Origin: an uncultured Chloroflexia bacterium
GTDB lineage: Bacteria > Chloroflexota > Anaerolineae > CG2-30-64-16
NCBI GenBank assembly: GCA_963810095.1
Contig: CAWEMM010000002.1
Location: 1-64,000, forward strand
Direction of reading: 5' to 3'
Length of the DNA: 64,000 nt
Shown here piece by piece: positions 13,092 through 37,938 of this stretch. The translations under genes were made by a program, and so were the position numbers. The notes below the pieces were generated by a model. That model was given only the letters and a program-made list of their open reading frames with translations, did no database searches and was not told where the DNA came from. How positions within the stretch are numbered: the first letter of the stretch is position 1; every line of letters starts with the position of its first letter.

Positions 13092-15284
13092 CTACTGCTG
13101 CGGCTTATGGCATGCCTGGCAGGTGTCGCTGGTTCGACCAGCATGGTCGGCCGGGGCCGGCTTCAGCCCGCCATTGGGATTGTGGCACACGAGGCAGTCG
13201 CTGCGTCCGACCAAGTCGTGGGGGATGGTCGGGGCGGCGACGGCGCCGCCGCTGGCCGCGGGGGTGCCGGCAGGCGTGGCGGCAGGCGTTGCGGCCGAGC
13301 CGGCCGCCTGGTGGCAGCCCTGGCAGGTGTCGCTGGTTCGACCGGCGTGATCGGCCGGAGCCGGCTTCAGCCCGGCCGTCGGATCATGACATGCGACGCA
13401 GTTCTCGCGTCCGGCCACCTCGTGCGGGATGCCCGGCGCGTTCGATGCACCTGCGCTCGGGGTCGTCTCGGCTTCCGGCGTCGTCTCTGAGGTCGGCTCA
13501 GGCGTGGCGGCTGCAGCGCCGGGCTTGTGGCAGTTGGCGCACATGTCCGGGGTGAAGGCGGTATGGTTCTGGGGGAACGGCACGGCCTTGTCGGTAGCGT
13601 GGCACGCCAGGCACTCGCCCATCCCCTCGAGTTGGTGCGGGATGGTCGGCGGGGGCACAGGGGTTGCCTCGCCCGCTGCGGCCGGCACGCCGGGGACGTG
13701 ACAGCTGACGCAGAGGTCGCTCGAGAATGCGGCATGGTTTGCCGGGTACGGGACGACCTTGTCTGCCCCGTGGCAGACCTTGCAGTCGGTGGTCGCGCTG
13801 ACGGGGTGCGGGATCGGGTTGGGCGCGCCCGTCGAAGGCTTCCTGGCCGGGGCCGAGAGCTCGCGGATTTCAGGCGCGTTCAGCCCGGCGAACTTCCATT
13901 CCGTTGCGTGGCACGCGCTGTTCGAGCAGAAGCTGGAGTTGTCGCTCCCACCCGGGTTCGTCACGGTGTGACAGGTGGCGCACGTCGCGTCGAAGTTGTA
14001 GCGATGCTCGGCCAGCCATGTCGTCGACTTGTGCGTGTCCGGCTCATTGCCGGGCGCGACCGAAGAAATGGGCTGGAGCGTCTGCCCCGGGCCTGCCTGC
14101 TGTGGAATCGTGTGGCAAAGGTTACATTCGAGCCGGATCGCCTCATTCTCCGAGCTCAGGTGCTTGCCGTCATGGCAGCGGAAGCAACCGGGGAAGTCCT
14201 TGTGCCCGACATTGTTGTTGTGGCTCTCCCACGTCACATTCATGAAGGGAAATTGTGTTTTGTCGAAGATGTCCTGCAGTACGCTCACGGCCGTCTTGAC
14301 GTCCGCCTCGCGCTGCGCGTAGATTTCGGGCTGCTCGTTCTTGTAGTAGTCCTCGATCGCCGCAATCGCCGCGGCCGCCTCGTCCTCAGTCGCGTACTGC
14401 TTCTCAAGCGTCTTGACGCCCTGGTCTTTGATGTACGGCAGGTTCGGCAAGGTTCCCTGCGTCAGTGCTTCGTCGATCACTTCGCCTGGCCGGCGGAAGT
14501 TGTGCGACGCCCGGTTGTGGCAGTCGACGCAGTCCATCTTGCGCTTTTCGTAGGTCGCCAGCTCCTCGGGAGTCAGCTTGCTGTCGACGGACATGTATTC
14601 GGTGACCTTGCCGTTGTATTCAGCCGAGACCCACGGGATATCCTGGCGCTTCTCGTCCGTTGCGATGTAGTAGACCGGGTTGTCGATGTGCCAGTGAATG
14701 CCCCGTCCGAAACCTTCAGCCTCCGTTCCGCCGCCCGTATGCACGTTCAGCGCCGTCTGAGTGAGGCTGTTGTCCTGGTCGGTGCCGTATTCATTCTTGA
14801 CAATCACCCGGTCGCCATAGACCTTCTGCGGCCAGTGGCACTGCTCGCAGACCACCTCGACGGGCCGCAGGCTTGTGATCGGCGAGGGAATGGGTTTCTC
14901 GTACTGCCCGGTCGGATAGACCCACAGGTAGCGGGCATTGGCCAGTTTGGCCTTGATCGCCGCCACCGCCCCCGGGCCGATATGGCAGGTGCCGCACTCG
15001 GCGCGGGCATGAGCCGAGTTCTCATAGGCCGTGTGCTCGGGCGCCATGACGTGACACATCGAGCAGAAAGCACTCGATTCGGTCCAGTGCAGGAACTCGG
15101 TCGAAGCAATGAAGAAGATAAGCAGGAAGCCGACGCCGGCCAGCGCCGCCAGCACATAGGGCCACCGTTTGCGGCGGGCGCGGGTCGGAGCGGCCTCGAC
15201 GGGGGCGTCGACCAACGCCTCGCTGGCATCCTGGGGCGCAGCGTCAGGCGTGCCCGGCGGCTCGGGGAGAGGGGAACCGGTCAT
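13092..15284 (-). CDS. Membrane-anchored multiheme cytochrome c: NapC/NirT-type N-terminus plus four tandem diheme modules (15 CxxCH + 1 CX4CH)
   Basis: Single TM then TES..FCxxCH (NapC/NirT); hemes counted in the translation; C-terminal IPH..CxxCH..H..CxxCH units separated by Pro/Ala/Thr linkers. Confidence 0.9.
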   Translation of the reverse strand: MTGSPLPEPPGTPDAAPQDASEALVDAPVEAAPTRARRKRWPYVLAALAGVGFLLIFFIASTEFLHWTESSAFCSMCHVMAPEHTAYENSAHARAECGTCHIGPGAVAAIKAKLANARYLWVYPTGQYEKPIPSPITSLRPVEVVCEQCHWPQKVYGDRVIVKNEYGTDQDNSLTQTALNVHTGGGTEAEGFGRGIHWHIDNPVYYIATDEKRQDIPWVSAEYNGKVTEYMSVDSKLTPEELATYEKRKMDCVDCHNRASHNFRRPGEVIDEALTQGTLPNLPYIKDQGVKTLEKQYATEDEAAAAIAAIEDYYKNEQPEIYAQREADVKTAVSVLQDIFDKTQFPFMNVTWESHNNNVGHKDFPGCFRCHDGKHLSSENEAIRLECNLCHTIPQQAGPGQTLQPISSVAPGNEPDTHKSTTWLAEHRYNFDATCATCHTVTNPGGSDNSSFCSNSACHATEWKFAGLNAPEIRELSAPARKPSTGAPNPIPHPVSATTDCKVCHGADKVVPYPANHAAFSSDLCVSCHVPGVPAAAGEATPVPPPTIPHQLEGMGECLACHATDKAVPFPQNHTAFTPDMCANCHKPGAAAATPEPTSETTPEAETTPSAGASNAPGIPHEVAGRENCVACHDPTAGLKPAPADHAGRTSDTCQGCHQAAGSAATPAATPAGTPAASGGAVAAPTIPHDLVGRSDCLVCHNPNGGLKPAPADHAGRTSDTCQACHKPQQ

Positions 15285-15384
15285 ATCTTTTCCTCCAAGG
15301 GTGAACGGAACGTAGAGCGCGAGATCAACCTGGACAAGAACAACCTGTTAGTGAGCGAAATCCAACTTCAATGAGGATGCCGGG

Positions 15385-15413
15385 AGTATACTCCTCTCGC
15401 CAAGAAGTGTCAA
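15385..15413 (-). promoter_or_regulatory. Sigma70-type promoter of the 16-heme cytochrome
   Basis: Minus strand TTGACA-17 nt-TATACT. Confidence 0.65.
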
Positions 15414-15451
15414 AGTGTGTCTAAACGCACAATTAACAGCTGAAGCGCGGG

Positions 15452-16144
15452 CTAGGGTTTGTCTTTGGGTTCGGCCTCGCCGACGACGGCGGCCACGGCA
15501 CGTTCCCAGGAATCCGCCTCCGCGGGGGTCACGGGCTCAGAGCGGAAGCGATAATCGTGCTTGCGGATCAACTCGTCGAGCTCGGCGCGCAGCCGGGACC
15601 ACGCGTCTGCTTGCCAGGCCGCGAGCAGCCGCACGGCGGATGAACCGGCCTGGCCCAAGGCGAGCTGGAAATGCGGCAGGCAGATGCCGCCCGCCTGCTT
15701 GTAGGCTTCGGCAAGGGCCGCGTCGTCCATGTGGCTGATGAGCACCTTGACCTCGCGCTGTTCCGCGTCGCGCTCGAGCAGGCAGGCCGGGCAGGTCGCC
15801 GTCGGAGCGAGCGCACGGGACAGGTCGGGCTGGCCGCGGCCGAACAGCCGCGCCGGGGCATTGCCGTTGGCCTCCAGCGCCTTGATCAGGGTGTTGACAA
15901 CGTCTCGATAGATGATGGCCGTGCCGAGCACCGCGCCGCGTTCACCCGCCAGCCGCCAAGCGTGCGTGTAGCACAACCCCCGGGCGTTCCGCAGCGCCTC
16001 GCGCAGCTTCACGTCGGTCACACCCTCGTAGATGAGGGCGTGGATGTAGCTGTCGCTGGCCCCGCGGGCAAGACGACAAATCGCACAGCCCTCGGCCTGG
16101 AACGCCTCGAGCAGCTCGTGGTACAGCACGTCTTTCTCGGCCAT
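15452..16144 (-). CDS. DUF6062-like protein with two internal CxxC...CxxH repeats (putative Zn-binding)
   Basis: GCAIC..GLCYTH and TCPAC..GICLPH; LIRKHDYR motif; ATG at 16144. Confidence 0.7.
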   Translation of the reverse strand: MAEKDVLYHELLEAFQAEGCAICRLARGASDSYIHALIYEGVTDVKLREALRNARGLCYTHAWRLAGERGAVLGTAIIYRDVVNTLIKALEANGNAPARLFGRGQPDLSRALAPTATCPACLLERDAEQREVKVLISHMDDAALAEAYKQAGGICLPHFQLALGQAGSSAVRLLAAWQADAWSRLRAELDELIRKHDYRFRSEPVTPAEADSWERAVAAVVGEAEPKDKP

Positions 16145-16155
16145 AGCAGAAGCGT

Positions 16156-17820
<1,665 letters not shown>

Positions 17821-17844
17821 AGCGCGCAATTCGAGGCGCACTCG

Positions 17845-19980
17845 TTATCGCTGGCGGAGCAGCCGCGCCGAGTTGCCGAGGATGCCCAGGTCAGGAATCG
17901 ACTGTGCGGCGGCCGCAAGCACCGGCGGCAGGATCCCAACCGCGGCCAGCGACACGCCGATGATGTTGTAGACGGTCGTGAACACCAGGTTCATCTTCAC
18001 CACCCGCATCGTTCGGCGGGCAATCCGGAACAGTTCGGGCGCCAGGCGCCAATCCTCGCGCATGAGCGAGACGTGTGCGGCTTCGACTGCCACCGCCGCG
18101 CCGGCCACGGCCATCGCGACGCCCACATTGGCCTGGGCCAGGGCGGGTGCGTCGTTCACGCCGTCGCCGATCATGACGACCGTCTTGCCCTGTGCCTGGT
18201 ACTCGCGCACGATGCGAATCTTGTCCTCTGGCAGCAGGTTCGCCCGGCAGGCGATGCCGAGCTCCGCCGCGAGTGCGGAGGCCGTCCGCTCGTTGTCCCC
18301 GGTCAGCAGCTCGATGTGCTTGATGCCCATCTCGCGCAACTCGGCCAGCGCATCGGGCACCTCGCTTCGCATGGTGTCGGCAGCCGAGAGGACGCCGGCG
18401 GGCCGGCCGTCGACGGCGACGTAGAGCGCGGTGTTGCCGTTACGGGTGATGTCGGGCCAGTCCAAGGCTTCCCCGATTGAAATTGACGCCGGAGCCAGCG
18501 CAATCACCGGCGTCTGCGCCACCACGAATGCCCGGTTCCCCACTACCACGGCCCTGCCGTCGATCAGCGCGCGGACGCCCTGGCCGGGCAGAGCTTCGAA
18601 CGATTCAGGTTCCAGCAGCGCCACGCTGTGCCGGAGTGCGGCGTCACGAACGGCCTGTGCCAGCGGGTGCTCGGAGTAACGTTCGGCCGACGCGGCCAAA
18701 GAGAGCACGTCGTCGCGACTGAAGCGGCCATTCGCCGGAATGACCTCCGCAATGCGCGGCTGGCCGAGCGTGAGCGTGCCGGTCTTGTCGATCAACAGGA
18801 CGTCGGCCTTGGCGAGCGTCTCGATGTATTGGCCGCCCTTGATCAGCAGCCCTCGTCGGGCGGCCGCGCCGATCGAGGCGAGCATGGCGATGGGCGTGGC
18901 GAGCGCAAATGAGCAAGAGCAGGCGACGACGAGCACCGCGGCCGCGGCCAGCGGGTTGCGCGAGATGATCAGGGTGAGCGCGGCAATGCCGGCAATAATG
19001 GGCAGATAGATCGCGGCAAAACGGTCGGCGGCCGTCTGCACCGGGCCCCGGTGCGCCTCCGCCTCCTCGACCATGCGCACGACCTTCCCGAAGGTCGCGT
19101 CGCGGCCCACCTTCGTCGCGCGCACCCGCAGGTGGCCGAGTTCGGCAATGGTCGCCGCATAGACCTGGCTTCCGGGGCCGGCATCGACCGGCAGCGGCTC
19201 GCCCGTGATGGCGGCCTGGTTGATGCTTGCGCGGCCGTCCAGTACTTCGCCGTCGACCGGAATCTGCTCGCCGGGCCGGACGATCACCGTCTCGCCCACT
19301 CGCACCTCGTCCGCCCGGATTTCGATCTCCTCGCCTTCTCGCACTACACGAGCCGTGACGGGCGCCAGCGCTGCCAGGTCTTTGACCGCCCGGCGCGCAC
19401 GCTCTGTCGTGAAGCGCTCGACGGTGTCGCCGACGTGCATCAGGAAGACCACCATGAGCGCGGTGACCCACTGCCCGACGGCAAGCGCGGCGATGACGCC
19501 CAGGGTCATCAGGTGGTGCGCCGTAATCTGGCGGCGCAGGGTCGCACGCCAGACGTTCCGGAAGGCCGTGAACCCGGCCGCGACGACGAGTGCGATGCCG
19601 ATGGGCAGCGGAACTGCGGCATTCAGGCGCTCGAAGAGGCCGAGCAACTCGCCGCCGACCACCATGAAAAGGACGAACGCGACGACCGCGACGAGCAGCA
19701 GGCCGATGCGCCGGCCGAAAGCGCGTTCCTCCGCAGAGCTCACGGGTTCCGCGGGACCGGCCGTGTCAGGAACTCGGTAGCCCGCGCCGGCAACCGCCTT
19801 GCGAATATCTTCGAGGGCGACGCGGCCGGGGTCCAGCTCGACCGTCGCGCGCTCCGACGCCAGGTAGACCTCGACATGCTGCACGCCGGGCAAGCCCGCA
19901 ATGGCATGACGGACGTGCTGCGTGCATTCGGCGCAGTCCATGCCCTGCACCGGGACTTCAAGCGTTGTTGTCTGCGACAT
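17845..19980 (-). CDS. Heavy-metal-translocating P1B-type ATPase with CSC transmembrane motif and N-terminal HMA domain
   Basis: GMDCAEC HMA, TGE, VACSCSFALATP, DKTGTLT, SEHPLA, GDGVNDAPALA. Confidence 0.92.
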   Translation of the reverse strand: MSQTTTLEVPVQGMDCAECTQHVRHAIAGLPGVQHVEVYLASERATVELDPGRVALEDIRKAVAGAGYRVPDTAGPAEPVSSAEERAFGRRIGLLLVAVVAFVLFMVVGGELLGLFERLNAAVPLPIGIALVVAAGFTAFRNVWRATLRRQITAHHLMTLGVIAALAVGQWVTALMVVFLMHVGDTVERFTTERARRAVKDLAALAPVTARVVREGEEIEIRADEVRVGETVIVRPGEQIPVDGEVLDGRASINQAAITGEPLPVDAGPGSQVYAATIAELGHLRVRATKVGRDATFGKVVRMVEEAEAHRGPVQTAADRFAAIYLPIIAGIAALTLIISRNPLAAAAVLVVACSCSFALATPIAMLASIGAAARRGLLIKGGQYIETLAKADVLLIDKTGTLTLGQPRIAEVIPANGRFSRDDVLSLAASAERYSEHPLAQAVRDAALRHSVALLEPESFEALPGQGVRALIDGRAVVVGNRAFVVAQTPVIALAPASISIGEALDWPDITRNGNTALYVAVDGRPAGVLSAADTMRSEVPDALAELREMGIKHIELLTGDNERTASALAAELGIACRANLLPEDKIRIVREYQAQGKTVVMIGDGVNDAPALAQANVGVAMAVAGAAVAVEAAHVSLMREDWRLAPELFRIARRTMRVVKMNLVFTTVYNIIGVSLAAVGILPPVLAAAAQSIPDLGILGNSARLLRQR

Positions 19981-20025
19981 AGAGTTATTATACCACAGCG
20001 TATACAAAAGCCGGCGAATCGGGGC

Positions 20026-20057
20026 AAAAAAAGGAAGGGCCCCGGAGGGCCCTTCCC
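20026..20057 (-). terminator. Intrinsic terminator after the decaheme cytochrome
   Basis: Minus strand GGAAGGGCC...GGCCCTTCC hairpin followed by T7. Confidence 0.8.
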
Positions 20058-20105
20058 GACTATTGGAGCCTGGCGGGTCTCGACAACCCGCCAGGCTTAC
20101 GCCTC

Positions 20106-22562
20106 TTACTGGCCGAACAGCGCCATGACCTCGTTGATCTTGTCCATCAACGTCTGGGTCGGGTTCTTGCCGGCCTCGACCAGGTAGCCGCCCATCTGGA
20201 AGTGCTGATTCAGCATCCGGAGGGTGCCTGCCTCGTCCGCGTTAATTGCCTGCGCGCGGTGGCAGCCGCCACACGCCCGCTCGGCCGGACCGACCACGTA
20301 GGACGGCACGTTCGAGATGGCGCGGTCTGCGCTCTCATTGGTCGCCGAGGCCGACAGCAGGCCCGGCAGCGACGCCGACTGGCTCGGCGCGTTGTACATG
20401 CCCTTCACATGGCACGCTTCGCAGTCCGTAATGCCATGAGTCGGGAACGGCATGCCCGTGTGTTCCTCGTACTTCAGCGCCTGAACCGGATCGTCAAAGC
20501 TGACGTTCGGCAGATCGAAGTACTGCATGGAGTGGACCGCATGCACGTACGAGTCCAGCGAGCGTGACTGCATCTCGAGATGCGAGCCGCCAGCCTTGAC
20601 GATGTGGCACATCCGGCAAGCGGTGGTGTTGCCACCGTACGACGGATTGTGGAATGTCGTGGCAAGCGCGGCGTGGCAGTTGTCGCACTTCTCGGTTTCG
20701 ACGATCGGGCTGAACGCCGAGTCGTCGAAGGCAGCCGTCTTCAGGTCGACCGTGCGGGTGGCGGCGTTGACCGCAACCTGCTGGCCGTCATTGTTGACAG
20801 CGTTCGAAAGGATGCCCACCTCAGCCCGCTTCACCGAGCCGTCCTTCATCTGGGGAGCCCAGGTGCTGAGGTCCGCGACCGCTTCCCACTGGCCCGCACC
20901 CGTCGACTTGATGGCCAGGCGGGGGTTGGCAACCTTGTCGCCCAAGGCGGCTTCGAGGTTCCGAGCGTCGCTCGCATCCATCTTGCCGTCCTTGTTGTCG
21001 TCGAAGGTGCGCTCGTGCGGCCCATAGAGGAAGTCCTTCGTGTCCCAGCCGTAGAGCCCGACCAGGACCGTCGGGGTGATGTTCTTGGTAACGTCGATGT
21101 CCTTGAAGTCGGACTTGGCGTTGGCTTTGAACCCGATGGTCAGCTTATTGTCGGCGAACTTGACAGATTCGACCGTCACGGACACGGCGTCAGAGTACTT
21201 GATGCCCGCGGCGTTGTAGATCTGCTTATCGTACCCGGTATGGATCTTGTCGAATCCAGGCGCCATGCCGCCGGAAGCCTTGTGGCAGGTGCTGCACTGC
21301 ATCGACGGATCGGCGTTGTCCGCCCAGTTGATCTTCGGGTGGGTGGCCGGGAGGATGGTGTTAAGCGCAAACTCGGTCGTGTCGTAGGCCGGCTCTTCGC
21401 CTTCCTTTGCCTCCGCCTTGGCGCCCGTCACGGGGTGGCAGCTCTTGCAGGTCGCGCCGACCATGTTCGCGTCGGTCAGGACCTTATCGAGCTTGCCCTC
21501 GTGGCAGGTGACGCAGTTGGCCATCGACTGCGGGTAGGGGAATTCCATGGCGTGCGACATGTGAACGTCGTTCATGACGCTCGGGTTGTAGGCCATGGCC
21601 TTCTTTTGGTCCTCGGTCAGCATCGCAAGCGCCTTCTCCTCGTCGGGTTCGGCAAGGAACTTGGCTGCGAGCTCAGGATCGTTGACCAACAGCTGCCATT
21701 CGTAGTGCCCGCCCTCGGCATTGTCGATGTGGCAGACCTTGCAGGTCATGAAGTCGGTCTTGGGATCGCCGTTGACTTCGGCGTAGATGTAACCGTGCTT
21801 GAGGTACGGGTCGGTGTGGCACTTCACGCAGCCTGCGTTGTTCGCCGACGACTCGTAGTTGACCGCACCGGTGGTGAGCAGCGCGGCGAACGGGTACTTG
21901 TTCTGGCGCACGCGGGTGCCCGGGATGGTGGCCTGGGTCTCATCGCGGCCGTACACGGCCAGGACGCCCGGGGTGTTGCTGATGTCGGTGTAGTCGACGA
22001 AGTTCTTGTCGTCCTTCGCCAACTCGGTCAAGGTGCTGGTGACCCCGCCCTTGCCGTCCGACGTGATCTTGCCCTTGAGGGACAAGCGGTCGCGAGCCGG
22101 CTCGAACTGGAACTTGCCGTCCTTGAACGGCACCCAGTAGATCGAGAGCTCGTCGGCCTTGGCCGGATCGAAGGGCTGACCATTCAGCATCATGTTGAAG
22201 GTGATGGTGGTGGTGTCCGGATTGGCCTTGAACGCGTACTTCACGTCCGTGACCTTCAGGGCGCCGTCCTGGTACAGTTGATCGTAATACTGCTGGTGGG
22301 TGGCGCCAGTGGTCTTGTGACAGATCTGGCAGGTCTCGACGGTTGCCCCGGCGTTTGGCTGCGCTGCGGTCTGCTGCGTGGCAGCCTTCGGTGCCACGGT
22401 GGCCTTCGGCGCAGCGGCGGGCGCGGCGGTCGCAGCAGGTGCGGGCGTCGCCGTTGCGGTCTGCGCGTTGTTGCCGGCAGCCGAGACCTGCAGGGCCGCG
22501 AACAGGGCCACGAGCAGCGCGACGGCTGCCAGGACCAAGAGATACTTCTTAGAAAGCTTCAT
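20106..22562 (-). CDS. Secreted decaheme cytochrome c, MtrC/OmcA-family-like
   Basis: 10 CxxCH as 2x(1 heme + heme-free domain + 4 hemes); YPQSMANCVTCH and IVETEKCDNCH motifs; Sec signal without lipobox; GGAG RBS. Confidence 0.85.
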   Translation of the reverse strand: MKLSKKYLLVLAAVALLVALFAALQVSAAGNNAQTATATPAPAATAAPAAAPKATVAPKAATQQTAAQPNAGATVETCQICHKTTGATHQQYYDQLYQDGALKVTDVKYAFKANPDTTTITFNMMLNGQPFDPAKADELSIYWVPFKDGKFQFEPARDRLSLKGKITSDGKGGVTSTLTELAKDDKNFVDYTDISNTPGVLAVYGRDETQATIPGTRVRQNKYPFAALLTTGAVNYESSANNAGCVKCHTDPYLKHGYIYAEVNGDPKTDFMTCKVCHIDNAEGGHYEWQLLVNDPELAAKFLAEPDEEKALAMLTEDQKKAMAYNPSVMNDVHMSHAMEFPYPQSMANCVTCHEGKLDKVLTDANMVGATCKSCHPVTGAKAEAKEGEEPAYDTTEFALNTILPATHPKINWADNADPSMQCSTCHKASGGMAPGFDKIHTGYDKQIYNAAGIKYSDAVSVTVESVKFADNKLTIGFKANAKSDFKDIDVTKNITPTVLVGLYGWDTKDFLYGPHERTFDDNKDGKMDASDARNLEAALGDKVANPRLAIKSTGAGQWEAVADLSTWAPQMKDGSVKRAEVGILSNAVNNDGQQVAVNAATRTVDLKTAAFDDSAFSPIVETEKCDNCHAALATTFHNPSYGGNTTACRMCHIVKAGGSHLEMQSRSLDSYVHAVHSMQYFDLPNVSFDDPVQALKYEEHTGMPFPTHGITDCEACHVKGMYNAPSQSASLPGLLSASATNESADRAISNVPSYVVGPAERACGGCHRAQAINADEAGTLRMLNQHFQMGGYLVEAGKNPTQTLMDKINEVMALFGQ

Positions 22563-22909
22563 CGCTCCTCCATAGGCGATTGGTGGGAAAGACAACTACG
22601 TAGATTTGGGGACAGTATGAATCGTCGAACGTGTAGCAGGTACCTCCGTTCTACTAAAGTCCCAGCGTCAGGCGAGCCGGCGGTGTTCGGGCAGGAGGGT
22701 CTTCGGGTAGGACCGCCTGCGCAAACCGGTCTTTAGTTCCCGGAGCCTCCCAGGTGAGTGAACTGCACCGGGGAGCACGAAAGGGGAAACGAGCCGCGGC
22801 TTGCACCGAGGCCTATGGGCTGGTTTTGTGATATTACACCCAATCCACGGCCGTCCACATGATCTGTATCATATTGCACTAAATGCATGTGACAAAAGTA
22901 GCTGACAAC

Positions 22910-22944
22910 AAAAAAGAAACCGGGGGCCGTCAAGGCCCCCGGTT
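22910..22944 (-). terminator. Intrinsic terminator after the 755-aa cytochrome
   Basis: Minus strand aaccgggggcc-ttgac-ggcccccggtt followed by TCTTTTTT. Confidence 0.8.
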
Positions 22945-22989
22945 ATCGTAGTGGAGGGGCGGGTTAGGGGCCCGCCCCCGGTGTCGAAG

Positions 22990-25257
22990 TTATTTACTCG
23001 CGGCCGGCCGGGTCAGACCGGTCAGGTCGACCTTGGCGCCGCCAGCCTTCAGGTCTTCGAGCGAGTCGTACATGAACTGCGCTGCGTAGGCCAGGTTGTG
23101 GGCGTAGAGGCCGGGGTCCTTCTGCGAGTACTGGTAGTTGTACGCCGCCTTCAGCAGGCGGGGCGTGAACTTGGAGTAGGCCGGTTCGTCCTTGTCGACC
23201 TTGCCGTTGCCGTTGAGGTCTTCGTAGAAGTACGGGTAGGCATTGGCATCGTAGACGATGGCGGCCTTGGCGACGTTCTTCGCGTAGTCCTGGATGCCGG
23301 CGTACAGCTTCTCCTGGAGCGTCGTGATCTCGCCCTGCGCGCCTTCTTTGGTGTCCTTGTCACCGTCGAGGTCGGCCGCGGTCATGCGGATTTCCTCAGG
23401 TGACTTGACGCCGGCGTGGCAGGTCACGCACTTGTCGAACTGCAGGCCCAACTCGTGGGTGTTGTGGCAGCCGGTGCAGTTGTCGAACGGCGCCGGGTGC
23501 ATGTGGCGGCCCACGTAGTCCTTGCCGGTGTACTGGTATGCGCCCTGCGCATCGTTGCCGAACAGCGACGCGCCTGCCGCGAAGTAATGGACGTTCTGGA
23601 AGCGCAAGCCCTTCTCAGGCGTCTTGTCGGCTTCGGCGTTGCCCAGGCTCAGGTTGACCGACTGGGTCGACGCGCGGCCCTGGTGGCACTCGAGGCACAG
23701 GTTTGCCGGGACCGGGTCGGTGTAGGCGCCCTTGTCGTCCTTCGCGCTGAAGCTCACGGTCTTGCCGCTCGGGAACGGAACGCCCTTGACCGGGTACAGC
23801 GTGTACTTCTCCAGGTCGTTGTGGCAGGTCGAGCAGGCGAGGCCGTTCGCCGGCTCGGCTGCGGTCGTGCCCACGGTCTGCACCGAGCCGCTGGAAGTCA
23901 CCGCGACCGTGCCATTGTTGTGAATGAACTCGGGCAGGCCGGTGGCCGAGTGGCACTTGGCGCAGCCCGCCGGAACCTCACCCTCGGCGTCCCAATCGCG
24001 GAACGCCATCGAGGTGCCGTCGAAGTGACCGACGTCGTTGCGGACGGCCTTCGCCAGATCCACCGGCTTGGCGATCTTGGTGTTCAGGTCCGCAATCGAG
24101 TCGTGCATTAGCTGGATAATGTACTTCGCGTTGTGTGCGAAGGCGCCCGGGTCCTTGCCGGCCACCTGGTAGTTGTAGGCGGCCTTCAGGAGGCGGGGGG
24201 TCCAGGTCGAGTAAGACTTCTCGCCCTGGTCCAGCTTGCCGTTCGCATTGGCGTCGGCAAAGAAGTACGGGTAGGTGTTGGCATCGTAGCCGATGTCGAC
24301 CTTGGCGACTTCCTTGGCGTACGCCTTGATAGCCGTGAGCAGCATAGCTTGCACGCCGGCGTACTCCGCCTGGATGCCTTCCTTAACATCGCCGTTGCCG
24401 TTGTAGTCCACCAGCGAGCCGTTCATGCGGATCTTGGCCAGATCCTCGACGGTCTTGACGCCCTGGTGGCAGGTGCCGCACTGGTCGATGTTGAGTTGGG
24501 TCGCATGCTGATCGTGGCAGCCCATGCAGGTATTGAACGGCGCCGGATGCTGGAACTTGCCATCGTAGCTCTGGCCGTCGTACTCGTAGCCGCCCTTGAC
24601 GAGCGTGCCGTACTGGGTGGCCGCAGCCGCGAAGTAGTGGACGTTGCGGAAGCCGAAGGTGCTGGTCACGGTCTTGCCGTTGGTCGTGGTCACGACCGGC
24701 TTGACAACCGTATCGAGGTCCTTGACCGGGTCCAGCTTAAAGGTGCCCGTGATCTGGTTGTTGACGCTGACGGTCGACTCGCGGCCCTGGTGACACTCCA
24801 TGCAGCGTGCTTCGGCGCCGAGGCCGGTGAGTGTAATGCCGGAGGGGAAGGTGACGGTATCATGCTGCGCGGCTGCCTTGTTGTGGCAGGCGACGCAGTC
24901 GATCACCGTGTTGTTGGCGGCGGGCTTATCGACCTTGCCGGCCGCGCTGCCGTCCGCGCCCAGGAAATCCTCGAAGCCGCCCGAGCTATGGCACTTGGCG
25001 CAGCCCACCTCGACTTCGCCGGCCTGGTCCCAGTGGCGGAAGGCCTCTGCCTTCGCGTCGGCGTGGCCAGACTTCTGCCAGACTTCCAGGAACGGAACGG
25101 TGGGGCTGACGGTGTTGACTGCGGGTGCGGGCTTCGGCGTGGGTGTCGCCGTTTGGTTCGAGGGCGCTGCCCCAGGTTCGGCATAGGCTACAGCGAACAC
25201 GCCGAGCATGAGCGCGAACACGGCCAGGGCAACGGCCAGTTTCGTCCAGTGCTTCAT
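22990..25257 (-). CDS. Secreted decaheme cytochrome c made of two tandem 5-heme repeats, polyheme OmcB/OmcC-like
   Basis: 10 CxxCH; duplicated AFRxWD..CAKCHS, CxECHQGR, HYFAA and RLLKAAYNYQ..KDPG..AHN blocks; signal peptide cleaved at AYA|E; AAGGAGG RBS. Confidence 0.88.
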   Translation of the reverse strand: MKHWTKLAVALAVFALMLGVFAVAYAEPGAAPSNQTATPTPKPAPAVNTVSPTVPFLEVWQKSGHADAKAEAFRHWDQAGEVEVGCAKCHSSGGFEDFLGADGSAAGKVDKPAANNTVIDCVACHNKAAAQHDTVTFPSGITLTGLGAEARCMECHQGRESTVSVNNQITGTFKLDPVKDLDTVVKPVVTTTNGKTVTSTFGFRNVHYFAAAATQYGTLVKGGYEYDGQSYDGKFQHPAPFNTCMGCHDQHATQLNIDQCGTCHQGVKTVEDLAKIRMNGSLVDYNGNGDVKEGIQAEYAGVQAMLLTAIKAYAKEVAKVDIGYDANTYPYFFADANANGKLDQGEKSYSTWTPRLLKAAYNYQVAGKDPGAFAHNAKYIIQLMHDSIADLNTKIAKPVDLAKAVRNDVGHFDGTSMAFRDWDAEGEVPAGCAKCHSATGLPEFIHNNGTVAVTSSGSVQTVGTTAAEPANGLACSTCHNDLEKYTLYPVKGVPFPSGKTVSFSAKDDKGAYTDPVPANLCLECHQGRASTQSVNLSLGNAEADKTPEKGLRFQNVHYFAAGASLFGNDAQGAYQYTGKDYVGRHMHPAPFDNCTGCHNTHELGLQFDKCVTCHAGVKSPEEIRMTAADLDGDKDTKEGAQGEITTLQEKLYAGIQDYAKNVAKAAIVYDANAYPYFYEDLNGNGKVDKDEPAYSKFTPRLLKAAYNYQYSQKDPGLYAHNLAYAAQFMYDSLEDLKAGGAKVDLTGLTRPAASK

Positions 25258-28524: not shown

Positions 28525-28730
28525 CGCTCTTCGGCGCAGTAAAGGTCCGTACTTCGCCCTCATTTCGCGGTGGCGTCTCCGGGTGTTGTGTATCGTAAGC
28601 CTCGGCCGGCGAGACTCGGCATGTGATGAGACGCGATTCATCTTGTGGACAGCCCGGCGGAGAGATGTCCGGCCAGCCGGTTTTCTGTCTTTTGTCGTTC
28701 CACATTTCTAGGTTCTCTCAGGAGGAGACA

Positions 28731-30704
28731 ATGTCCGTCAAGAAGCTGTCGGCTCTGCTCGCGGTCCTCGTGATCGCCAGCATGATGCTGACCGCCTGCC
28801 CGGCTCCGCAAGCTCAGACAGTCGAGAAGGTCGTTACCTCTGTTGTGACCGAGCAGGTCAAGGTTGTCGAGACCCAGGTCGTCGAAAAGCCGGTCGAGGT
28901 CGAGAAGGTTGTGACCAAGGAAGTGGAGAAGGTTGTCGAGAAGGCGACTGAGGATTACACCACTCCGCACCCGATCCTGAGCGACGTCCGCGTCCGCCAG
29001 GCCATCGCCTACTGCACCAACCGTCCTGATCTGATCGCTTCCGTCTATCCCTTCATCACCGATGAAGAGAAGTCCAAGCTGCTGATGGATACCTTCCTGC
29101 CCAAGACCCACTGGGCGTACAAGGGCGGGTATCAGGATTACCCGTTTGACAAGGCCAAGGGCGGCGCACTGCTCGACGAGGCCGGCTGGAAGCTCAAGGA
29201 AGGCGACACCTTCCGCACGAACGACAAGGGTGAGACGCTGGCCCTGAAGTTCACCACCACGAACGCACAGTTCCGCCAGACATGGAGCGCGGTCATGGTG
29301 CAGAACATGCAGGACTGCGGCATTCAGATGATCGCTCAGTACGTGCCGGCGTCCTGGTGGTTCGGCGACACGACGGGCCTGGCCCGCCGCGACTACGAGT
29401 TGGGCGCGTACGCCTGGGTCGGCGAGTCCGATCCGAAGGGCCGCACCCTCTATGCGTGTGACCAGATCCCGCTTCCGAGCAATAACTGGGAAGGCCAGAA
29501 CAGCATGGGTTGGTGCAACGAGACCGCCTCGAAGGCGATCATCCTGGCCAACAACACCCTTGACCGCGATGCGCGCATCACGGCATACGACACCGTCCAG
29601 AAGGAATTCGCCAAGGACATGGTGTCGCTGCCCGTGTTCCAGCGCCTCGAGGGCGAAGCCTGGAATCCCAACCTGGAGGGCATCAAGACCTCCCCGACCG
29701 AATACGCGATCGTGAGCGCGGGCGGTTGGAAGCTGGCCGACGGCGGCGACACTGCAGTCATCGGCTTCTCGCAGGAACCTGCCTCCATGTTCGACCTGGT
29801 CGAATCTGCGGCCGCGACCCGCCAGGCATACTACCTGGGCGTGTCCAACGTCAACACCCAGTTCGACTATGACTACCAGCCTGGCATCCAGGACCCGCTC
29901 AGCACGATCGAGAACGGCCTCTCCAAGAATGTGGACGTCGAGGTCAAGGCCGGCGACAAGGTCTACGATTCGAAGGGCGAGGCAGTAGAGCTGGCCAAGG
30001 GCATCAAGGTCTTCGATGCGACCGGCAACGAGGTCGAGTTCGACGGCACGACCCCGATCAAGATGAAGCAATTGACGTCCGAGTACAAGTTCAAGCCGTT
30101 CACCTGGAGCGACGGGACCAAGGGCTCGGTGGCCGACCTGCTGTTGGGCCACAAGATCGACTGCGACAAGGATTCCGGCAGCACCTCCTTCGAGGTCTGC
30201 AACCAGATCGCCGAGGTCACGCCCGGAACCGGAACTGACCTGAGCTACACGATCAAATGGCTGCCCGGCTCGCAGTACTCGCTGTACTTCCTGTCGCAGT
30301 TCCATATCTATCCCAGCTTCCAGAAACTGGCCGACGGCCGCATGCTGGCCGACGTGCCGGCGAAGGAATGGGCCACGCTGCCCGAGATCGCCGAGAGCCC
30401 GCTGAGCATGGCGCCGTTCGTTCTGACCGACTGGAAGAAGGGCGAGAGCATGACCTTCACCCGGAATGAGTACTACGAGCCCAAGCCGGCGCTGAAGACC
30501 ATCGTCATCCAGTTCTTCCCCGACAGCCAGACCGCCGTTGCGGCGCTGCTGGGCGGCGACGTGGATTACCTCGAAAAGTCGACCCTCGGGGCCGGCGCAG
30601 AACTGCAGACCGTGCTCGACGCCCAGAAGGAAGGCAAGCTCAAGGTTGACTTGATCGCCAGCCCCACCTGGGAGCACGTCGACATGAACCTGTTCACGAA
30701 GTAA
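28731..30704 (+). CDS. Peptide/nickel (family 5) ABC substrate-binding lipoprotein, circularly permuted, copy 1
   Basis: Lipobox LTAC, VEKVVT stalk, SBP_bac_5 motifs in swapped order; AGGAGG RBS. Confidence 0.9.
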   Translation: MSVKKLSALLAVLVIASMMLTACPAPQAQTVEKVVTSVVTEQVKVVETQVVEKPVEVEKVVTKEVEKVVEKATEDYTTPHPILSDVRVRQAIAYCTNRPDLIASVYPFITDEEKSKLLMDTFLPKTHWAYKGGYQDYPFDKAKGGALLDEAGWKLKEGDTFRTNDKGETLALKFTTTNAQFRQTWSAVMVQNMQDCGIQMIAQYVPASWWFGDTTGLARRDYELGAYAWVGESDPKGRTLYACDQIPLPSNNWEGQNSMGWCNETASKAIILANNTLDRDARITAYDTVQKEFAKDMVSLPVFQRLEGEAWNPNLEGIKTSPTEYAIVSAGGWKLADGGDTAVIGFSQEPASMFDLVESAAATRQAYYLGVSNVNTQFDYDYQPGIQDPLSTIENGLSKNVDVEVKAGDKVYDSKGEAVELAKGIKVFDATGNEVEFDGTTPIKMKQLTSEYKFKPFTWSDGTKGSVADLLLGHKIDCDKDSGSTSFEVCNQIAEVTPGTGTDLSYTIKWLPGSQYSLYFLSQFHIYPSFQKLADGRMLADVPAKEWATLPEIAESPLSMAPFVLTDWKKGESMTFTRNEYYEPKPALKTIVIQFFPDSQTAVAALLGGDVDYLEKSTLGAGAELQTVLDAQKEGKLKVDLIASPTWEHVDMNLFTK

Positions 30705-30883
30705 CATTCGAAGAGACCCGGTTGCTGCGTCCTCACTGTCCTGCACAGTGGCAGGGTGCTGAGGCGCAGCCCCGGGTGTGGATCGACAGTAAGCGGGCGG
30801 GCTGCACGACTTGGTCGTCGCCCGCCCGTCGTGCACTTATCCGGGGGTGGCGGCGCGCCGGCCCACCCGACCGGCCTCACCCA

Positions 30884-30950
30884 TGAGGAGCGCCTCGACC
30901 GTGAGGACTTCCTCATCGATGAGGACTGCCTCAAGAATGAGGATTGCATG
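30884..30950 (+). repeat. 18-bp tandem repeats (TGAGGA..CCTC); the last unit is the permease RBS and ATG
   Basis: tgaggagcgcctcgaccg / tgaggacttcctcatcga / tgaggactgcctcaagaa / tgaggattgcatg. Confidence 0.7.
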
Positions 30951-32156
30951 ACTAACTACCTCATCCGCCGCGTATTTCAGATGGCGCTGGTCGTCTTCTT
31001 GGCGGCAGTTTTCGTTTACTTTCTGTTCAATATCTCGCCAGGTGGGCCGCTGGCAGGGATCCAGCAGCAGCAGCGGCGCATTACGCGCCAGGACCTGGCG
31101 CGGCTGCGCGCGCAGTACGAGCTGGACCTGTACTGGCCGGTGCGCTTCAGCCGCTGGCTGATCGGTGTGCCCAACGGCCCAATCACCGTCGGCGGCCGCG
31201 AGCTGTTCAAGGACACCCCCGTCGGCTGCTACCTGCCGCGCTACGAGGGCAACAGCGGCGGCTTGCAGCCGAAGGTGGTCGGGTGTGACGACTACGTCTA
31301 TTTGAGCGAGCTGCCCCAGTTGCACCCCGCGCTGCTTTCCAGCGATGGCATCCTGCGTGGGGATTTCGGCTTGTCGACGGTTATCGCGCGCTCGCGCCCG
31401 GTCAGCGGCCTGATTGCCAGCCGCATCGGGCCGACTCTGCTCCTGATGACCATTGCGCTGCTCCTATCGCTGCTGCTGGGCGTGCCGATTGGCATTTACA
31501 GCGCGGTCAAGCAGTACTCGAAGTTCGACTATTTCTTCACGGCGTTTGCCTTCGTGGGTTCGGCCATGCCGACGTTCTTCTTTGCGCTGCTGCTGATCCT
31601 GGTGTTCTCGGTGTTCCCGGTGTTCCTGGTCGACACGATGCCCTGGATCCCGCGGCTGCCGCCCGGGCTGCAACAGGCTGTAAGGCCATACGAGGTCGCC
31701 TCGTGGCTGCCCAAGATCCAGCCCGGCACGCCGCTTGACCGGTTCTTGCACCTGCTAATGCCGGTGGCGGTGCTGACGTTCTTCACCATGGCGCCGTGGA
31801 GCCGCTTCGTGCGCTCGTCGATGCTGGAAGTGATGCGGCAGGACTACGTGCGGACGGCGCGGGCGAAAGGGCTCTACGAGCGGGTCGTGATCATGAAGCA
31901 CGCGCTGCGCAATGCGCTCATCCCGTTCGTAACGATCGTGGTGCTGGCGCTGCCGGGCTTGTTTGCCGGTGCCATCATTACGGAGACCGTGTTTGCCTGG
32001 CCGGGCATGGGGCGGCTGTACTACGATGCTTTGCAGCGCAGTGACTGGAACGTCGCCCTGGCATTGATCTTCATCACGGCCCTGCTGACGGTCGTGGCGA
32101 CGCTGATCGGCGACATCCTGTACACGGTTGTCGACCCTCGCATTAAGTTCTCCTAG
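30948..32156 (+). CDS. Peptide ABC transporter permease (OppB/DppB family), operon 1
   Basis: MTNYLIRR, GDFGLS, RSSMLEVMRQDYVRTARAKG EAA loop, DPRI terminus. Confidence 0.92.
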   Translation: MTNYLIRRVFQMALVVFLAAVFVYFLFNISPGGPLAGIQQQQRRITRQDLARLRAQYELDLYWPVRFSRWLIGVPNGPITVGGRELFKDTPVGCYLPRYEGNSGGLQPKVVGCDDYVYLSELPQLHPALLSSDGILRGDFGLSTVIARSRPVSGLIASRIGPTLLLMTIALLLSLLLGVPIGIYSAVKQYSKFDYFFTAFAFVGSAMPTFFFALLLILVFSVFPVFLVDTMPWIPRLPPGLQQAVRPYEVASWLPKIQPGTPLDRFLHLLMPVAVLTFFTMAPWSRFVRSSMLEVMRQDYVRTARAKGLYERVVIMKHALRNALIPFVTIVVLALPGLFAGAIITETVFAWPGMGRLYYDALQRSDWNVALALIFITALLTVVATLIGDILYTVVDPRIKFS

Positions 32157-32223
32157 GAGAACGGATCTCGCAGGCGTGAACGAGCGTAGGCGAGAACCTA
32201 TCGGCTGACGCCGGAGTTTGAGT

Positions 32224-33234
32224 ATGACAACAACAACCAGGACGGCTCGCACCATCGGGCCGACCAGTCGAGCCGAAGACGCGACCCAGGAGAGCCAAGT
32301 CAAGGTCGTCTTCCGGCGCTTTCGCCGCCACCGCCTTGCCGTGATCTCGGCGATCTTGCTGCTCGTGATCTTTGTCGCGTCGCTGCTGGCACCGCTGATC
32401 ACGACGTTCCCGCGAGATGCGGTCGACGTGTCGACGTCCGCTCGCCCCGCGCCGCCCGGCACGGTCGCCAGGGACGGACGGGTGCACCTGTTGGGGGTCG
32501 ACCATCTCGGCCGCGATCTGTATACGCGCGTGCTCTACGCGGCGCGCGTCTCGCTGACGATCGCCGTGCTCGTCGTGCTGTTGAGCGAGTCGTTCGGAAC
32601 CATGTTGGGCGCGATCGCCGGGTATTACGGCGGGCGGACGGATGTCCTCCTGTCGCGCATCAACGAGTTCATGTTGACAATCCCGCAGCTGCCGATCCTG
32701 CTGATCATCTCGGCGATCCTGCTGAAACGCGACGTAGTGCTGCCACTGCCGGGGTTCTTCAACAAGTTCCTGAGCGCGCTGATGTTGGCGCCCGAGCGCG
32801 AAGCGCAGAAGGTGGTCGTGCTGGTGCTGATCCTGGTGATCTTCGGCTGGCTGGGCTCGTTCCGCCTGATGCGCGGCATGGCGCTGACGCTGTCGAAGCA
32901 GGACTTCGTCGAGGCGCTGCGGGCGGCCGGGGCCAGCGATGCCCGGATCATCTTCCGGCACATCATCCCCAACGGGCTGGCGCCGATCCTCGTGAATGCG
33001 AGCCTGAGCCTGGGTGCGGTGATCGTGCTGGAATCGGCGCTGAGCTTTTTGGGGCTGGGGGTGCAAGACCCGACGCCGACATGGGGCAACATGCTGGACT
33101 TTGCGCGGTCGTACATGTTCAAGCACCCGTGGCTGCCGTTGGTGCCGGGGATTCCGCTGGTGATCGTGGCGATGGGGTTCAACTTCATCGGCGACGGGCT
33201 GCGCGATGCGCTGGACCCGCGGCTGAAGCGCTAG
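32224..33234 (+). CDS. Peptide ABC transporter permease (OppC/DppC family), operon 1
   Basis: LLGVDHLGRD, FVEALRAAGA, ESALSFLGLG, GDGLRDALDPR. Confidence 0.92.
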   Translation: MTTTTRTARTIGPTSRAEDATQESQVKVVFRRFRRHRLAVISAILLLVIFVASLLAPLITTFPRDAVDVSTSARPAPPGTVARDGRVHLLGVDHLGRDLYTRVLYAARVSLTIAVLVVLLSESFGTMLGAIAGYYGGRTDVLLSRINEFMLTIPQLPILLIISAILLKRDVVLPLPGFFNKFLSALMLAPEREAQKVVVLVLILVIFGWLGSFRLMRGMALTLSKQDFVEALRAAGASDARIIFRHIIPNGLAPILVNASLSLGAVIVLESALSFLGLGVQDPTPTWGNMLDFARSYMFKHPWLPLVPGIPLVIVAMGFNFIGDGLRDALDPRLKR

Positions 33235-33245
33235 CGGCCGGAGCG

Positions 33246-33309
33246 AACCACAAAGACACCAAGCCACGCAGCGGGCACAAAGGCTCGTTGGCCTTGGTGT
33301 CTTTGTGGT
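33246..33309. repeat. 9-nt-periodic palindromic element
   Basis: aaccacaaagacaccaag...cttggtgtctttgtggt. Confidence 0.85.
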
Positions 33310-33361
33310 CAATTGTGGACCGGGAGCTCTCCTTGAAAGCGCAATAAGGTAGACAAGACGT

Positions 33362-35507: not shown

Positions 35508-35668
35508 GCAGCAAAGGGAGTAGGGCGCTAACATAAAACTGGTCCTTCCCGTAGCAAGGGTCCTATTGGGCTGGAATGAGAAATCATTCCAGCCCTTTTT
35601 ATTTGTGTAACCAACGGTATATCACAGAATCTTGTGTAAGAGCAGTGCGTTGCCAATGTCTTATCGAC

Positions 35669-35697
35669 TTGACATCCTCTCACCGCCATGCTATTGT
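35669..35697 (+). promoter_or_regulatory. Sigma70-type promoter of peptide ABC operon 2
   Basis: TTGACA-17 nt-TATTGT with extended -10 TG. Confidence 0.6.
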
Positions 35698-35966
35698 TAC
35701 GTATCTCTGGCACAGAGGAAGCACCTCTTGCTTCTTTACCCGGAAAAGTGCCTCCGGGGCTATGACCCACGTCCGGGGGTCTTCAGCCACGATCGAACAT
35801 TGCCTTATCAAAGGAGGTGATGGCTCGACCTGACAGGAAGTAGCCCGTCTTGCGACGTCAAATTGCCCAACCTATCCAGACAAGCGAGTGGACACGCGTT
35901 ACCCGACGCGTGCCGAAGAGTTGTTCTTCCGTTTTTCATCCCACATCCATCTCTCAGGAGGAGAAA

Positions 35967-37938
<1,972 letters not shown>

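Follow-up and report, generated by a model that had tools for sequence, protein, structure and literature searches.

The first 64,000 nucleotides of contig CAWEMM010000002.1, from an uncultured Chloroflexia bacterium, form the stretch of DNA analysed here (the window). Positions 13092-25257 of its minus strand hold six genes, transcribed in the order F, E, ATPase, eno, DUF6062 and A. Three of these, A, E and F, encode multihaem cytochromes. It appears that the three proteins form an outward electron route from the membrane to extracellular acceptors, a reading to which a probability of roughly 55% is assigned. Judged from gene order across genomes, F and A are an evolutionarily linked pair, and E, which is probably transcribed on its own and mostly stands alone, appears to have landed between them in this lineage. 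The three genes are as follows:

22990-25257, minus strand: gene F, 755 amino acids, ten CXXCH motifs
20106-22562, minus strand: gene E, 818 amino acids from the ATG, ten CXXCH motifs (the longest open reading frame reaches 22595)
13092-15284, minus strand: gene A, 730 amino acids, 15 CXXCH motifs and one CX4CH motif (residue 453)

The haem c motifs of A, E and F add up to 36 when the CX4CH motif is included (15 CXXCH and one CX4CH, ten, and ten). The initial annotation had described three co-oriented cytochromes with 36 motifs, and their positions, strand and count are all confirmed. CXXCH is absent from the remaining 48 open reading frames (ORFs) of the window (at least 99 amino acids, greedy non-overlapping call). 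Across the whole 6.13-Mb, 16-contig genome of 65% G+C, only 15 ORFs carry at least three haem motifs. The concentration of motifs in A, E and F is therefore far above chance. The G+C content at third codon positions of the three genes (0.83-0.88) is similar to that of the adjoining genes, and thus gives no sign of recent acquisition. What the analysis shows directly is the identity of the genes, their folds, the conservation of motifs, the synteny and the absence of outer-membrane markers.

In the proposed mechanism, A would sit in the cytoplasmic membrane and oxidise menaquinol at its NrfH-type first haem. Electrons would then run along the eight-haem head of A and on through four two-haem beads, which are set on flexible linkers, into the cell wall. 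Exported F and/or E, held at or beyond the wall on low-complexity N-terminal spacers, would accept the electrons of A. These proteins would hand them on to acceptors outside the cell, which may be minerals of Fe(III)/Mn(IV), humics, electrodes or partner cells. With no second membrane to cross, a porin would not be needed. We infer the surface location, electron partners, direction of flow and substrate from the folds, tethers, gene linkage and lack of an outer membrane.

Gene A is the candidate for membrane entry, and three regions are distinguished in its product:

15087-15164, minus strand: transmembrane segment of A, residues about 41-66, the sole Kyte-Doolittle window above 1.6 spanning residues 40-66
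14832-15167, minus strand: NrfH/NapC-like head of A, residues 40-151, with the first three haem motifs, from profile matches
13095-13835, minus strand: C-terminal tail of A, residues 484-730, with four two-haem units, read from the translation

The protein begins with a 40-residue cytoplasmic start that is followed by a single hydrophobic segment. It matches the NapC/NirT N-terminal region of Pfam (PF03264) at 40.6 bits, with a cut-off of 24.1, and residues 41-151 match the solved NrfH structure (PDB 2j7a_C) at an E-value of 3.7e-8. The first motif, CSMCHVM, is of the CXXCHxM type, and an alignment of 31 sequences shows C74, C77, H78, M80 and K113 in every one of them. In NrfH, the haem that serves the menaquinol site is marked by CXXCHxM, and NrfH-type heads are known as quinol oxidases. 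The earlier description of A as a membrane-anchored protein of NapC/NirT type with 16 motifs is upheld by these matches. The more specific family models are not reached: NrfH (NCBIfam TIGR03153, E-value 6.6e-14) scores 52.1 against a cut-off of 134.2, NapC/NirT scores 19.9 against 310.6, and TorC scores 29.3 against 478.2. As judged by sequence, A belongs to the NapC/NirT/NrfH superfamily and is not an equivalog of NrfH, NapC, TorC or CymA.

Eight motifs precede the tail, one of them being CX4CH. Each tail unit follows the pattern IPH..CxxCH..P.P..H..CxxCH, with starts at residues 491, 548, 619 and 687, and so holds two extra histidines for its two haems. The units are joined by linkers rich in Pro, Ala, Thr and Glu. 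Matches to Paired_CXXCH_1 (three stretches) and Cytochrome_C7 are also found in A. A total of 7631 homologues reach an E-value of at most 0.001 among 8000 scored, and they vary mainly in the number of tail units, with 13, 15 or 16 motifs. In distant genomes, A-like genes encode seven motifs in about 560-595 amino acids. Taken together, A looks like a membrane-anchored quinol dehydrogenase with a haem tail in the form of beads on a string.

Similarities to known quinol dehydrogenases are confined to the head. As in NrfH (2J7A) and CymA, there is a single N-terminal transmembrane helix, closely spaced haem motifs and a CXXCHxM motif of NrfH type. In contrast to these proteins, which carry four motifs in about 160-190 amino acids, A has 16 in 730. 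It also has an insertion between motifs 3 and 4 and the four-unit tail, and it lacks an adjoining catalytic partner (NrfA, NapAB or TorA), its neighbours being the DUF6062 gene and a biotin-ligase-like gene. Members of the ImcH family have been described with a NapC-like region, about seven motifs and an atypical CX3CH next to the helix, and Anaerolinea thermophila is reported to have an ImcH homologue with one helix (PMC6295460; this and the other publications are cited for those parts of their text that were available). Compared with ImcH by description, A differs in that its first motif is CX2CH and its sole atypical motif is the CX4CH at residue 453.

The product of gene E consists of a signal-type hydrophobic segment, a 47-residue Pro/Ala/Thr linker, one haem motif, a beta domain, five haems, a second beta domain and four haems. 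The motifs lie at residue 78, at residues 245, 274, 350, 372 and 423, and at residues 626, 649, 714 and 764. This 1+5+4 layout differs from a 5+5 split of the haems over domains II and IV. Ten CXXCH motifs are found in E and in all 39 aligned members of its family, and the N-terminal motif (C78..H82), which lies ahead of domain I, is invariant. The Pfam model of MtrC/MtrF domains II/IV (PF22113) matches E twice, at 81.7 bits with a cut-off of 30 (E-value 5.8e-23). Of the 176 profile positions, 5-166 are matched by domain II and 3-133 by domain IV.

An AlphaFold model of E was built from 39 sequences and without haems. It has two confident beta domains (102-231 and 460-606) and helical haem regions at 240-450 and 620-818. 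The best PDB matches in Foldseek are all MtrC, UndA, OmcA or MtrF, with E-values from 3e-11 to 6e-7 and a probability of 1.0. Alignments made with VIA are collinear over 375-446 residues with Z of 8.5-10.3, including MtrF (3pmq) at Z 10.3 with an rmsd (root-mean-square deviation) of 7.3 over 375 residues. According to the model, E has the MtrC/OmcA/MtrF fold with its four-domain order, in agreement with its earlier description as an MtrC/OmcA-like decahaem protein. Relatives of E are already labelled "OmcA/MtrC family" by the pipeline of the Joint Genome Institute (JGI).

In MtrC-type proteins, a disulfide in beta-domain III is conserved. E has all of its 20 cysteines in CXXCH motifs, and the protein therefore has neither a lipobox nor a domain-III disulfide. 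Redox-active disulfides are mentioned in PMC6703420. Ten CXXCH motifs and a beta-haem-beta-haem order are shared with the Shewanella proteins MtrC, OmcA, MtrF and UndA (4LM8, 4LMH, 3PMQ and 3UCP). Unlike these, E has the 1+5+4 layout, has no MtrA/MtrB partners and is usually stand-alone. Among the homologues, a lipobox cysteine is present in 14 of 39 aligned sequences and a collagen-like Gly-X-Y stalk in 11 of 39. As a lipobox, a Gly-X-Y stalk or a Pro/Ala/Thr spacer may be used, the family follows a "tether plus spacer" design with interchangeable parts. A Pfam scan of the 51-residue N-terminal haem peptide alone gave no match. The permutation by which a domain-IV haem would have moved to the N-terminus is therefore only suggested by the layout. 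One scan of species-representative genomes returned 226 loci of the E family, mostly in Anaerolineae. In the best 80 of these 226, 64 have Chloroflexota-type labels; the rest, for example Planctomycetota or archaea, may be binning errors or transfers.

Gene F encodes a signal peptide, seen as a single hydrophobic segment, and then a Pro/Thr-rich (Pro/Ala/Thr) linker. The two halves of the protein are 42% identical (E-value 8e-91). Its model has a predicted local distance difference test score (pLDDT) of 82.8 and a predicted template modelling score (pTM) of 0.74. Foldseek returned nothing for F at an E-value of at most 0.001, with OmhA, OcwA and NrfA as weak top rows, and a PDB sequence search gave nothing useful, including no match to OcwA or OmhA. 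The fold matches come from an all-against-all VIA search:

Residues 51-398 of F against OcwA 6i5b_B: Z 12.4, rmsd 3.8, 216 residues aligned
Residues 51-398 of F against NrfA 6v0a: Z 11.5
Residues 51-398 of F against the octahaem nitrite reductase 8rv0: Z 11.3
Residues 51-398 of F against NrfA 1qdb: Z 11.3
Residues 51-398 of F against OmhA 6qvm: Z 11.1
Residues 408-741 of F against MccA 4rkm: Z 7.1

HAO is also among the VIA matches, at Z 6.3. On the strength of the model, F is a tandem duplication of a pentahaem module of the NrfA/OcwA/OmhA type. The label "OmcB-like" that it first received finds no support: searches of Pfam and NCBIfam, of PDB sequences and of folds, none of which compared F with OmcB directly, returned no family or chain of that name. 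The combination of Shewanella-type and Geobacter-type terminal modules that had been proposed is retained for the Shewanella-type fold of E, and the Geobacter-type part gives way to a fold known from Thermincola and Carboxydothermus.

The nearest systems are two surface reductases of Gram-positive iron reducers, OcwA of Thermincola potens (6I5B) and OmhA of Carboxydothermus ferrireducens (6QVM). Their hosts have a single membrane and no porin, as is probable here, and both proteins contain an NrfA-type pentahaem core with a helical bundle, as in F. OcwA is a surface reductase of Thermincola, and a cytochrome chain from the membrane through the wall has been proposed for hosts of this type (PMC6703420). 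F differs in being a doubled pentahaem protein with ten haems, where the others are 4+5 or 11-haem proteins, and it is 14-19% identical to them. Its host belongs to the Chloroflexota and theirs to the Bacillota. Homologues of F number 4827 with an E-value of at most 0.001 among 8000 scored. A lipobox cysteine is present in 12 of 38 aligned sequences and longer relatives bear Big_2 domains of surface type, both of which hint at a surface location.

The fold class of F covers surface reductases of Gram-positive iron reducers and enzymes of the nitrogen and sulfur cycles alike. A and F could accordingly work as a quinol-linked enzyme that reduces or oxidises a soluble compound of nitrogen or sulfur on the outer side of the membrane, with F as the catalytic protein and E unrelated to it. 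In favour of this are the matches of F to NrfA (11.5 and 11.3), octahaem nitrite reductase (11.3), MccA (7.1) and HAO (6.3), and the head of A, which is nearest to NrfH, the partner of NrfA. The top fold match of F, OcwA, has two open haem sites and in vitro reduces nitrite slowly, and hydroxylamine also (PMC6703420). As OcwA falls in the same fold class with these properties, the fold of F cannot decide between the end of a wire and an enzyme. F itself has no CXXCK motif, and Cytochrom_C552 (PF02335) is not among its Pfam matches. A true nrfA lies elsewhere in the genome (contig C10), where Cytochrom_C552 is matched at an E-value of 2e-144 and a four-haem ORF precedes the gene; F is thus not the nitrite reductase. 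In other genomes F keeps company with 10- to 15-haem partners and a cytochrome b, for which an enzyme with a soluble substrate would have no need, and the lipid anchors, stalks and Big_2 domains of the homologues are typical of surface proteins. A soluble-substrate enzyme is therefore considered unlikely.

Nearly all close relatives of A, E and F stem from metagenome-assembled genomes with the labels Anaerolineae, Anaerolineales, Caldilineaceae or Chloroflexota, and a single-membrane envelope is assumed for the Chloroflexota (PMC5808234, PMC7399161). The host genome is 88.5% complete with 4.8% contamination. Profile searches of this genome gave no match to MtrB_PioB (PF11854), Omp85/BamA, LpxC or TolC-type OEP; in control diderm genomes the Omp85, LpxC and OEP models were matched, and the MtrB_PioB model remained below its cut-off in every control. 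The absence of these markers fits a single-membrane cell. No beta-barrel porin gene is found near the cytochrome genes among the genes of the window. Both a missing porin partner and a host without a classical outer membrane had been proposed for this locus, and the genome-wide searches for MtrB-like porins (MtrB_PioB, Omp85) and for Omp85, LpxC and OEP agree with the proposal. Genes for cytochrome c and haem maturation are present in the genome.

The same proteins could also work inward. The electron donor would then be Fe(II), reduced humics, a cathode or a partner cell, and the recipient would be the quinone pool or an acceptor on the periplasmic side. Direction is not readable from sequence, and Mtr-type and CbcL-type systems have been reported in iron reducers and iron oxidisers alike (PMC6295460). 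The isolate Ardenticatena maritima is likewise reported to give both anodic and cathodic currents (PMC5808234). Nothing in the present evidence favours uptake, and no Cyc2-type or other iron-oxidation marker turned up in the window, where no search aimed at such markers was made. The head of A, being of the NrfH type known as a quinol oxidase, speaks against inward flow. This direction is accordingly judged improbable, and flow from the membrane outward is preferred.

Whether the three genes belong together was examined in two sets of genomes, namely 41 related genomes with the host included, and 50 further E-bearing genomes, two of which are shared with the first set. Related genomes are not independent, and the co-occurrence counts are descriptive rather than tests. 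In the first set, E is found in 10 genomes, F in 21 and A in 27, with 24 of the latter being strong, head-covering matches. A strong A is present in 17 of the 21 F-positive genomes against 7 of the 20 F-negative ones, and in 9 of the 10 E-positive genomes against 15 of the 31 E-negative ones. Of the 17 genomes that have both F and a strong A, 12 carry the two on one contig, at most 8 kb apart in 11. E lies between them only in the host and in the related genome G016. In the second set F occurs in 36 genomes and an A-like gene in 40, and the two are at most 15 kb apart in 24 of the 31 genomes with both. In the loci that were read, the family gene order is F-(E)-(ATPase)-eno-(phosphoglycerate-mutase-like gene)-DUF6062-(aldo-keto reductase)-A. 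The F-A linkage is kept from 78% to about 50% identity of F, through several rearrangements.

In seven of ten distant loci (L098, L099, L101, L102, L104, L105 and L107), F is part of a tight, partly overlapping operon. Its order is a 7- to 12-haem cytochrome, a NapC-like 7-haem protein, a 15-haem protein, an FdnI/HydC-like cytochrome b and F; L099 differs in the upstream part, and the ORF calls of L104 are fragmented. The cytochrome b was checked with Pfam in L098, L099, L104 and L105. In L098, L102 and L105, the three loci checked for this, the next gene after F is CcmH, and a thioredoxin-like gene is found in L102 and L105. At a further locus, L103, a 15-motif A comes directly after F. As the distant operons carry F together with a NapC-like and a 15-haem protein, the F-A pair of the window looks like the trimmed form of a quinol-to-multihaem module that is widespread. 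In this form, the head of the module and part of its wire appear to be fused in A. A comparable arrangement is the CbcL/Cbc type of Geobacter, since F of distant Anaerolineae follows multihaem cytochromes and the FdnI/HydC-like cytochrome b. In contrast, the window lacks such a module (a fused version lies at C6:314917), and only A ties F to the membrane here.

The position of E is different. F lies within 10 kb of E in 4 of the best 80 E loci (L018, L029, L062 and L069), and an A-like gene is found there too. The location of E between F and A is, by these gene orders, a lineage-specific arrangement that recurs in a few other genomes. Linkage across genomes, which had been put forward as a check of the set, is thus seen for F and A (24 of 31 within 15 kb) and not for E as a member of a conserved set (F near E in 4 of 80). 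Overall, the observations of the initial annotation stand, as does its interpretation of the types of A and E and of the missing outer membrane; its OmcB label finds no support, and E is not part of a conserved three-gene set.

It is also conceivable that A, E and F are neighbours by accident, serving separate pathways with no shared chain. Separate promoter-like and terminator-like sites and the housekeeping genes in between point in this direction, as does the placement of E elsewhere in most genomes. Twelve other multihaem ORFs, including a fused cytochrome b-octahaem protein and an 18-haem protein, could be the true partners. The persistence of the F-A linkage through divergence and rearrangement speaks against an accident, and the four other loci that place E beside F and an A-like gene do so as well. 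An accidental neighbourhood is therefore regarded as rather doubtful.

Several findings weigh against a shared outward route. The cytochrome genes have separate promoter-like and terminator-like sites and are split by eno, the ATPase gene and the DUF6062 gene. Co-occurrence of E and F is weak, with F in 6 of 10 E-positive and 15 of 31 E-negative genomes. E is the sole ORF with at least three haem motifs within 10 kb in 40 of the 52 loci that span at least 12 kb, and when all ORFs within 10 kb were clustered, no neighbour family occurred in more than 13 of 80 E loci. In most loci E is therefore a monocistronic orphan. The haem domains of its model come out poorly, as is to be expected of a model built without haems (pLDDT 66), and its Z in VIA is only 1-3 units above unrelated immunoglobulin-like rows (about 7). 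The NCBIfam model TIGR03507 (OmcA/MtrC) was not reached by E at an E-value of at most 0.01. A search with the E family profile (hmmsearch) matched nothing in the PDB, and phmmer likewise found no MtrC or OmcA chain. The fold of F is common to catalytic enzymes (NrfA, octahaem nitrite reductase and MccA), and OcwA, its top match, itself has open haem sites. The ten conserved histidines of F outside the motifs, five in each half, fit an all bis-His arrangement and a catalytic histidine equally, and were not used. At 88.5% completeness, missing outer-membrane genes are no proof of absence. Lastly, the public sequencing runs with the region are DNA only (at most 0.23 of sampled words), with no RNA run among them.

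Sediments, aquifers, digesters and electrode biofilms all harbour Anaerolineae in abundance. A survey has reported that they are rich in multihaem cytochromes with possible extracellular electron delivery (bioRxiv 10.1101/2021.08.23.457424). The absence of porin-cytochrome complexes alongside the multihaem cytochromes of Anaerolineales has also been noted (PMC7399161; bioRxiv 10.1101/2021.08.23.457424). Ardenticatena maritima is the one Chloroflexota isolate reported to show anodic and cathodic electron transfer (PMC5808234). Its strain 110S belongs to the same phylum, is presumed to have a single membrane and has proposed surface multihaem cytochromes. The protein studied there differs, being the seven-haem ARMA_0580, and the available text names no MtrC-fold, OcwA-type or NapC-with-tail protein. 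A literature search, with most subscription journals outside its scope, found no published description of a Chloroflexota MtrC-fold family, a doubled OcwA-type protein or a NapC head with a two-haem string, in the parts of the sources available. The general idea of Anaerolineae multihaem cytochromes without a porin is thus already published, and the arrangement of known protein types in this locus appears to be new. With the idea already in print and the locus analysed by computation, its value is that of a clearly delimited set of targets and not of a discovery. For a route in a cell that has no outer membrane, it offers three highly conserved candidates, namely for the point of entry at the membrane, for the wire across the wall and for the end at the surface, and each of them has over 1000 relatives in the databases. 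The Shewanella-type MtrC fold, as modelled for E, occurs in a rearranged, porin-independent form.

A wider proposal is tentative and would need to be held with some reserve. In it, E represents a large, strictly ten-haem, porin-free branch of the MtrC fold, in which the N-terminus would have taken over the fifth haem of domain IV. The protein would act with neither an MtrA partner nor a domain-III disulfide, and a lipid anchor, a collagen-like stalk or a Pro/Ala/Thr spacer would hold it on a single membrane. With F and A, it would commonly allow the Anaerolineae filaments of sediments and sludge to respire minerals or electrodes by way of cytochromes that span the wall. If this were true, the MtrC fold would not be tied to outer-membrane conduits.

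The L029 (G049:C3) and L062 (G070:C9) loci, from larger Anaerolineae genomes, are multi-cytochrome islands of about 14-16 kb. These hold a 5- to 8-haem protein, an A-like protein, F, a 14-haem protein, E and a 7-haem protein, and are the best places to study the A, E and F families as one set. A 7-haem protein of about 710-730 amino acids is encoded near E in 6 of the 80 loci (for example L060:7442-9571, L062:15467-17647 and L093:3555-5756). By description, it is similar in size and in number of haems to the 74-kDa seven-haem ARMA_0580 (PMC5808234).

The transcription signals and the genes between the cytochromes are listed below:

22918-22944, minus strand: terminator-like hairpin after F, 11-bp stem with nine GC pairs, T run
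22868-22895, minus strand: promoter-like site 5' of E, consensus match 10/12
20032-20057, minus strand: terminator-like hairpin after E, 11-bp stem with eight GC pairs, T run
17845-19980, minus strand: P1B heavy-metal ATPase, TIGR01525 (E-value 9.3e-164), with Pfam E1-E2_ATPase, Hydrolase and N-terminal HMA matches
16389-17681, minus strand: enolase, TIGR01060 (E-value 6.6e-201)
16321-16365, minus strand: terminator-like hairpin after eno, from a terminator scan, within copy 2 of a 136-nucleotide repeat
15452-16150, minus strand: DUF6062 gene, 232 amino acids, Pfam PF19538 (E-value 4.4e-19)
15385-15413, minus strand: promoter-like site 5' of A, TTGACA, 17 nucleotides, TATACT, consensus match only 11/12

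The counts of promoter and terminator consensus matches barely exceed those of shuffled controls, and the signals are therefore merely compatible with separate transcription. The locus had been described as not being one operon, with eno and the ATPase gene interspersed. This is sustained by the terminator-like sites after F, E and eno, and the DUF6062 gene, previously unmentioned, is to be added to the interspersed genes.

The DUF6062 gene lies directly 5' of A here and in eight further loci (L001, L002, L003, L006, L007, L008, L009 and L018). Its product is a cytoplasmic, Cys-rich protein with two CxxC motifs, a Cys-x-x-His and a Cys-x-Pro-His, and no signal peptide is seen. A protein atlas search with it returned DUF6062 clusters only, with no function, from Chloroflexota, Thermomicrobiota and Bacillota. 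The enolase of the window type is kept between F and A in the loci of related genomes. The genome holds two copies, the paralogue at C8:117721-119034 being 72% identical to the window copy. The C8 copy is followed by a phosphoglycerate-mutase-like gene, as is the cluster copy in G016. L006, L007 and L008 likewise have the P1B ATPase gene between F and eno, and L009 has a partial copy. Copper and zinc P1B pumps usually carry a CPC motif, and the window protein reads ACSCSF at this position.

Just 3' of eno lies a 136-nucleotide direct repeat (16156-16291 and 16312-16447), whose copies are 96% identical with a spacing of 156 nucleotides. Copy 2 overlaps the final 59 nucleotides of eno, and each copy contains a long hairpin. 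About nine weaker copies of its hairpin part, of about 70 nucleotides, are found in the genome at 74-79% identity. Owing to these dispersed copies, the repeat looks like a hairpin element similar to repetitive extragenic palindromic (REP) sequences. Further along the window (28623-39329), two peptide/nickel-type ATP-binding cassette (ABC) transporter sets, with SBP_bac_5 and permease genes, lie within about 10 kb. Their SBP ORFs match the Pfam profile only in part.

The 12 further ORFs with at least three haem motifs are found at other sites of the genome. At C6:313777-316602 (L010), a 9-haem gene is followed by the fused protein of an FdnI-like cytochrome b and an 8-haem part. This fusion resembles CbcL with its parts reversed, and its tail is 47% identical to the two-haem units of A. 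A 407-amino-acid protein with 18 CXXCH motifs is encoded at C6:334192-335415 (L011). At C14:45812-46714 (L013), the gene of a 7-haem cytochrome precedes those of a 4Fe-4S protein and an NrfD-like membrane protein, and from its gene content this set is likely another quinol-linked module.

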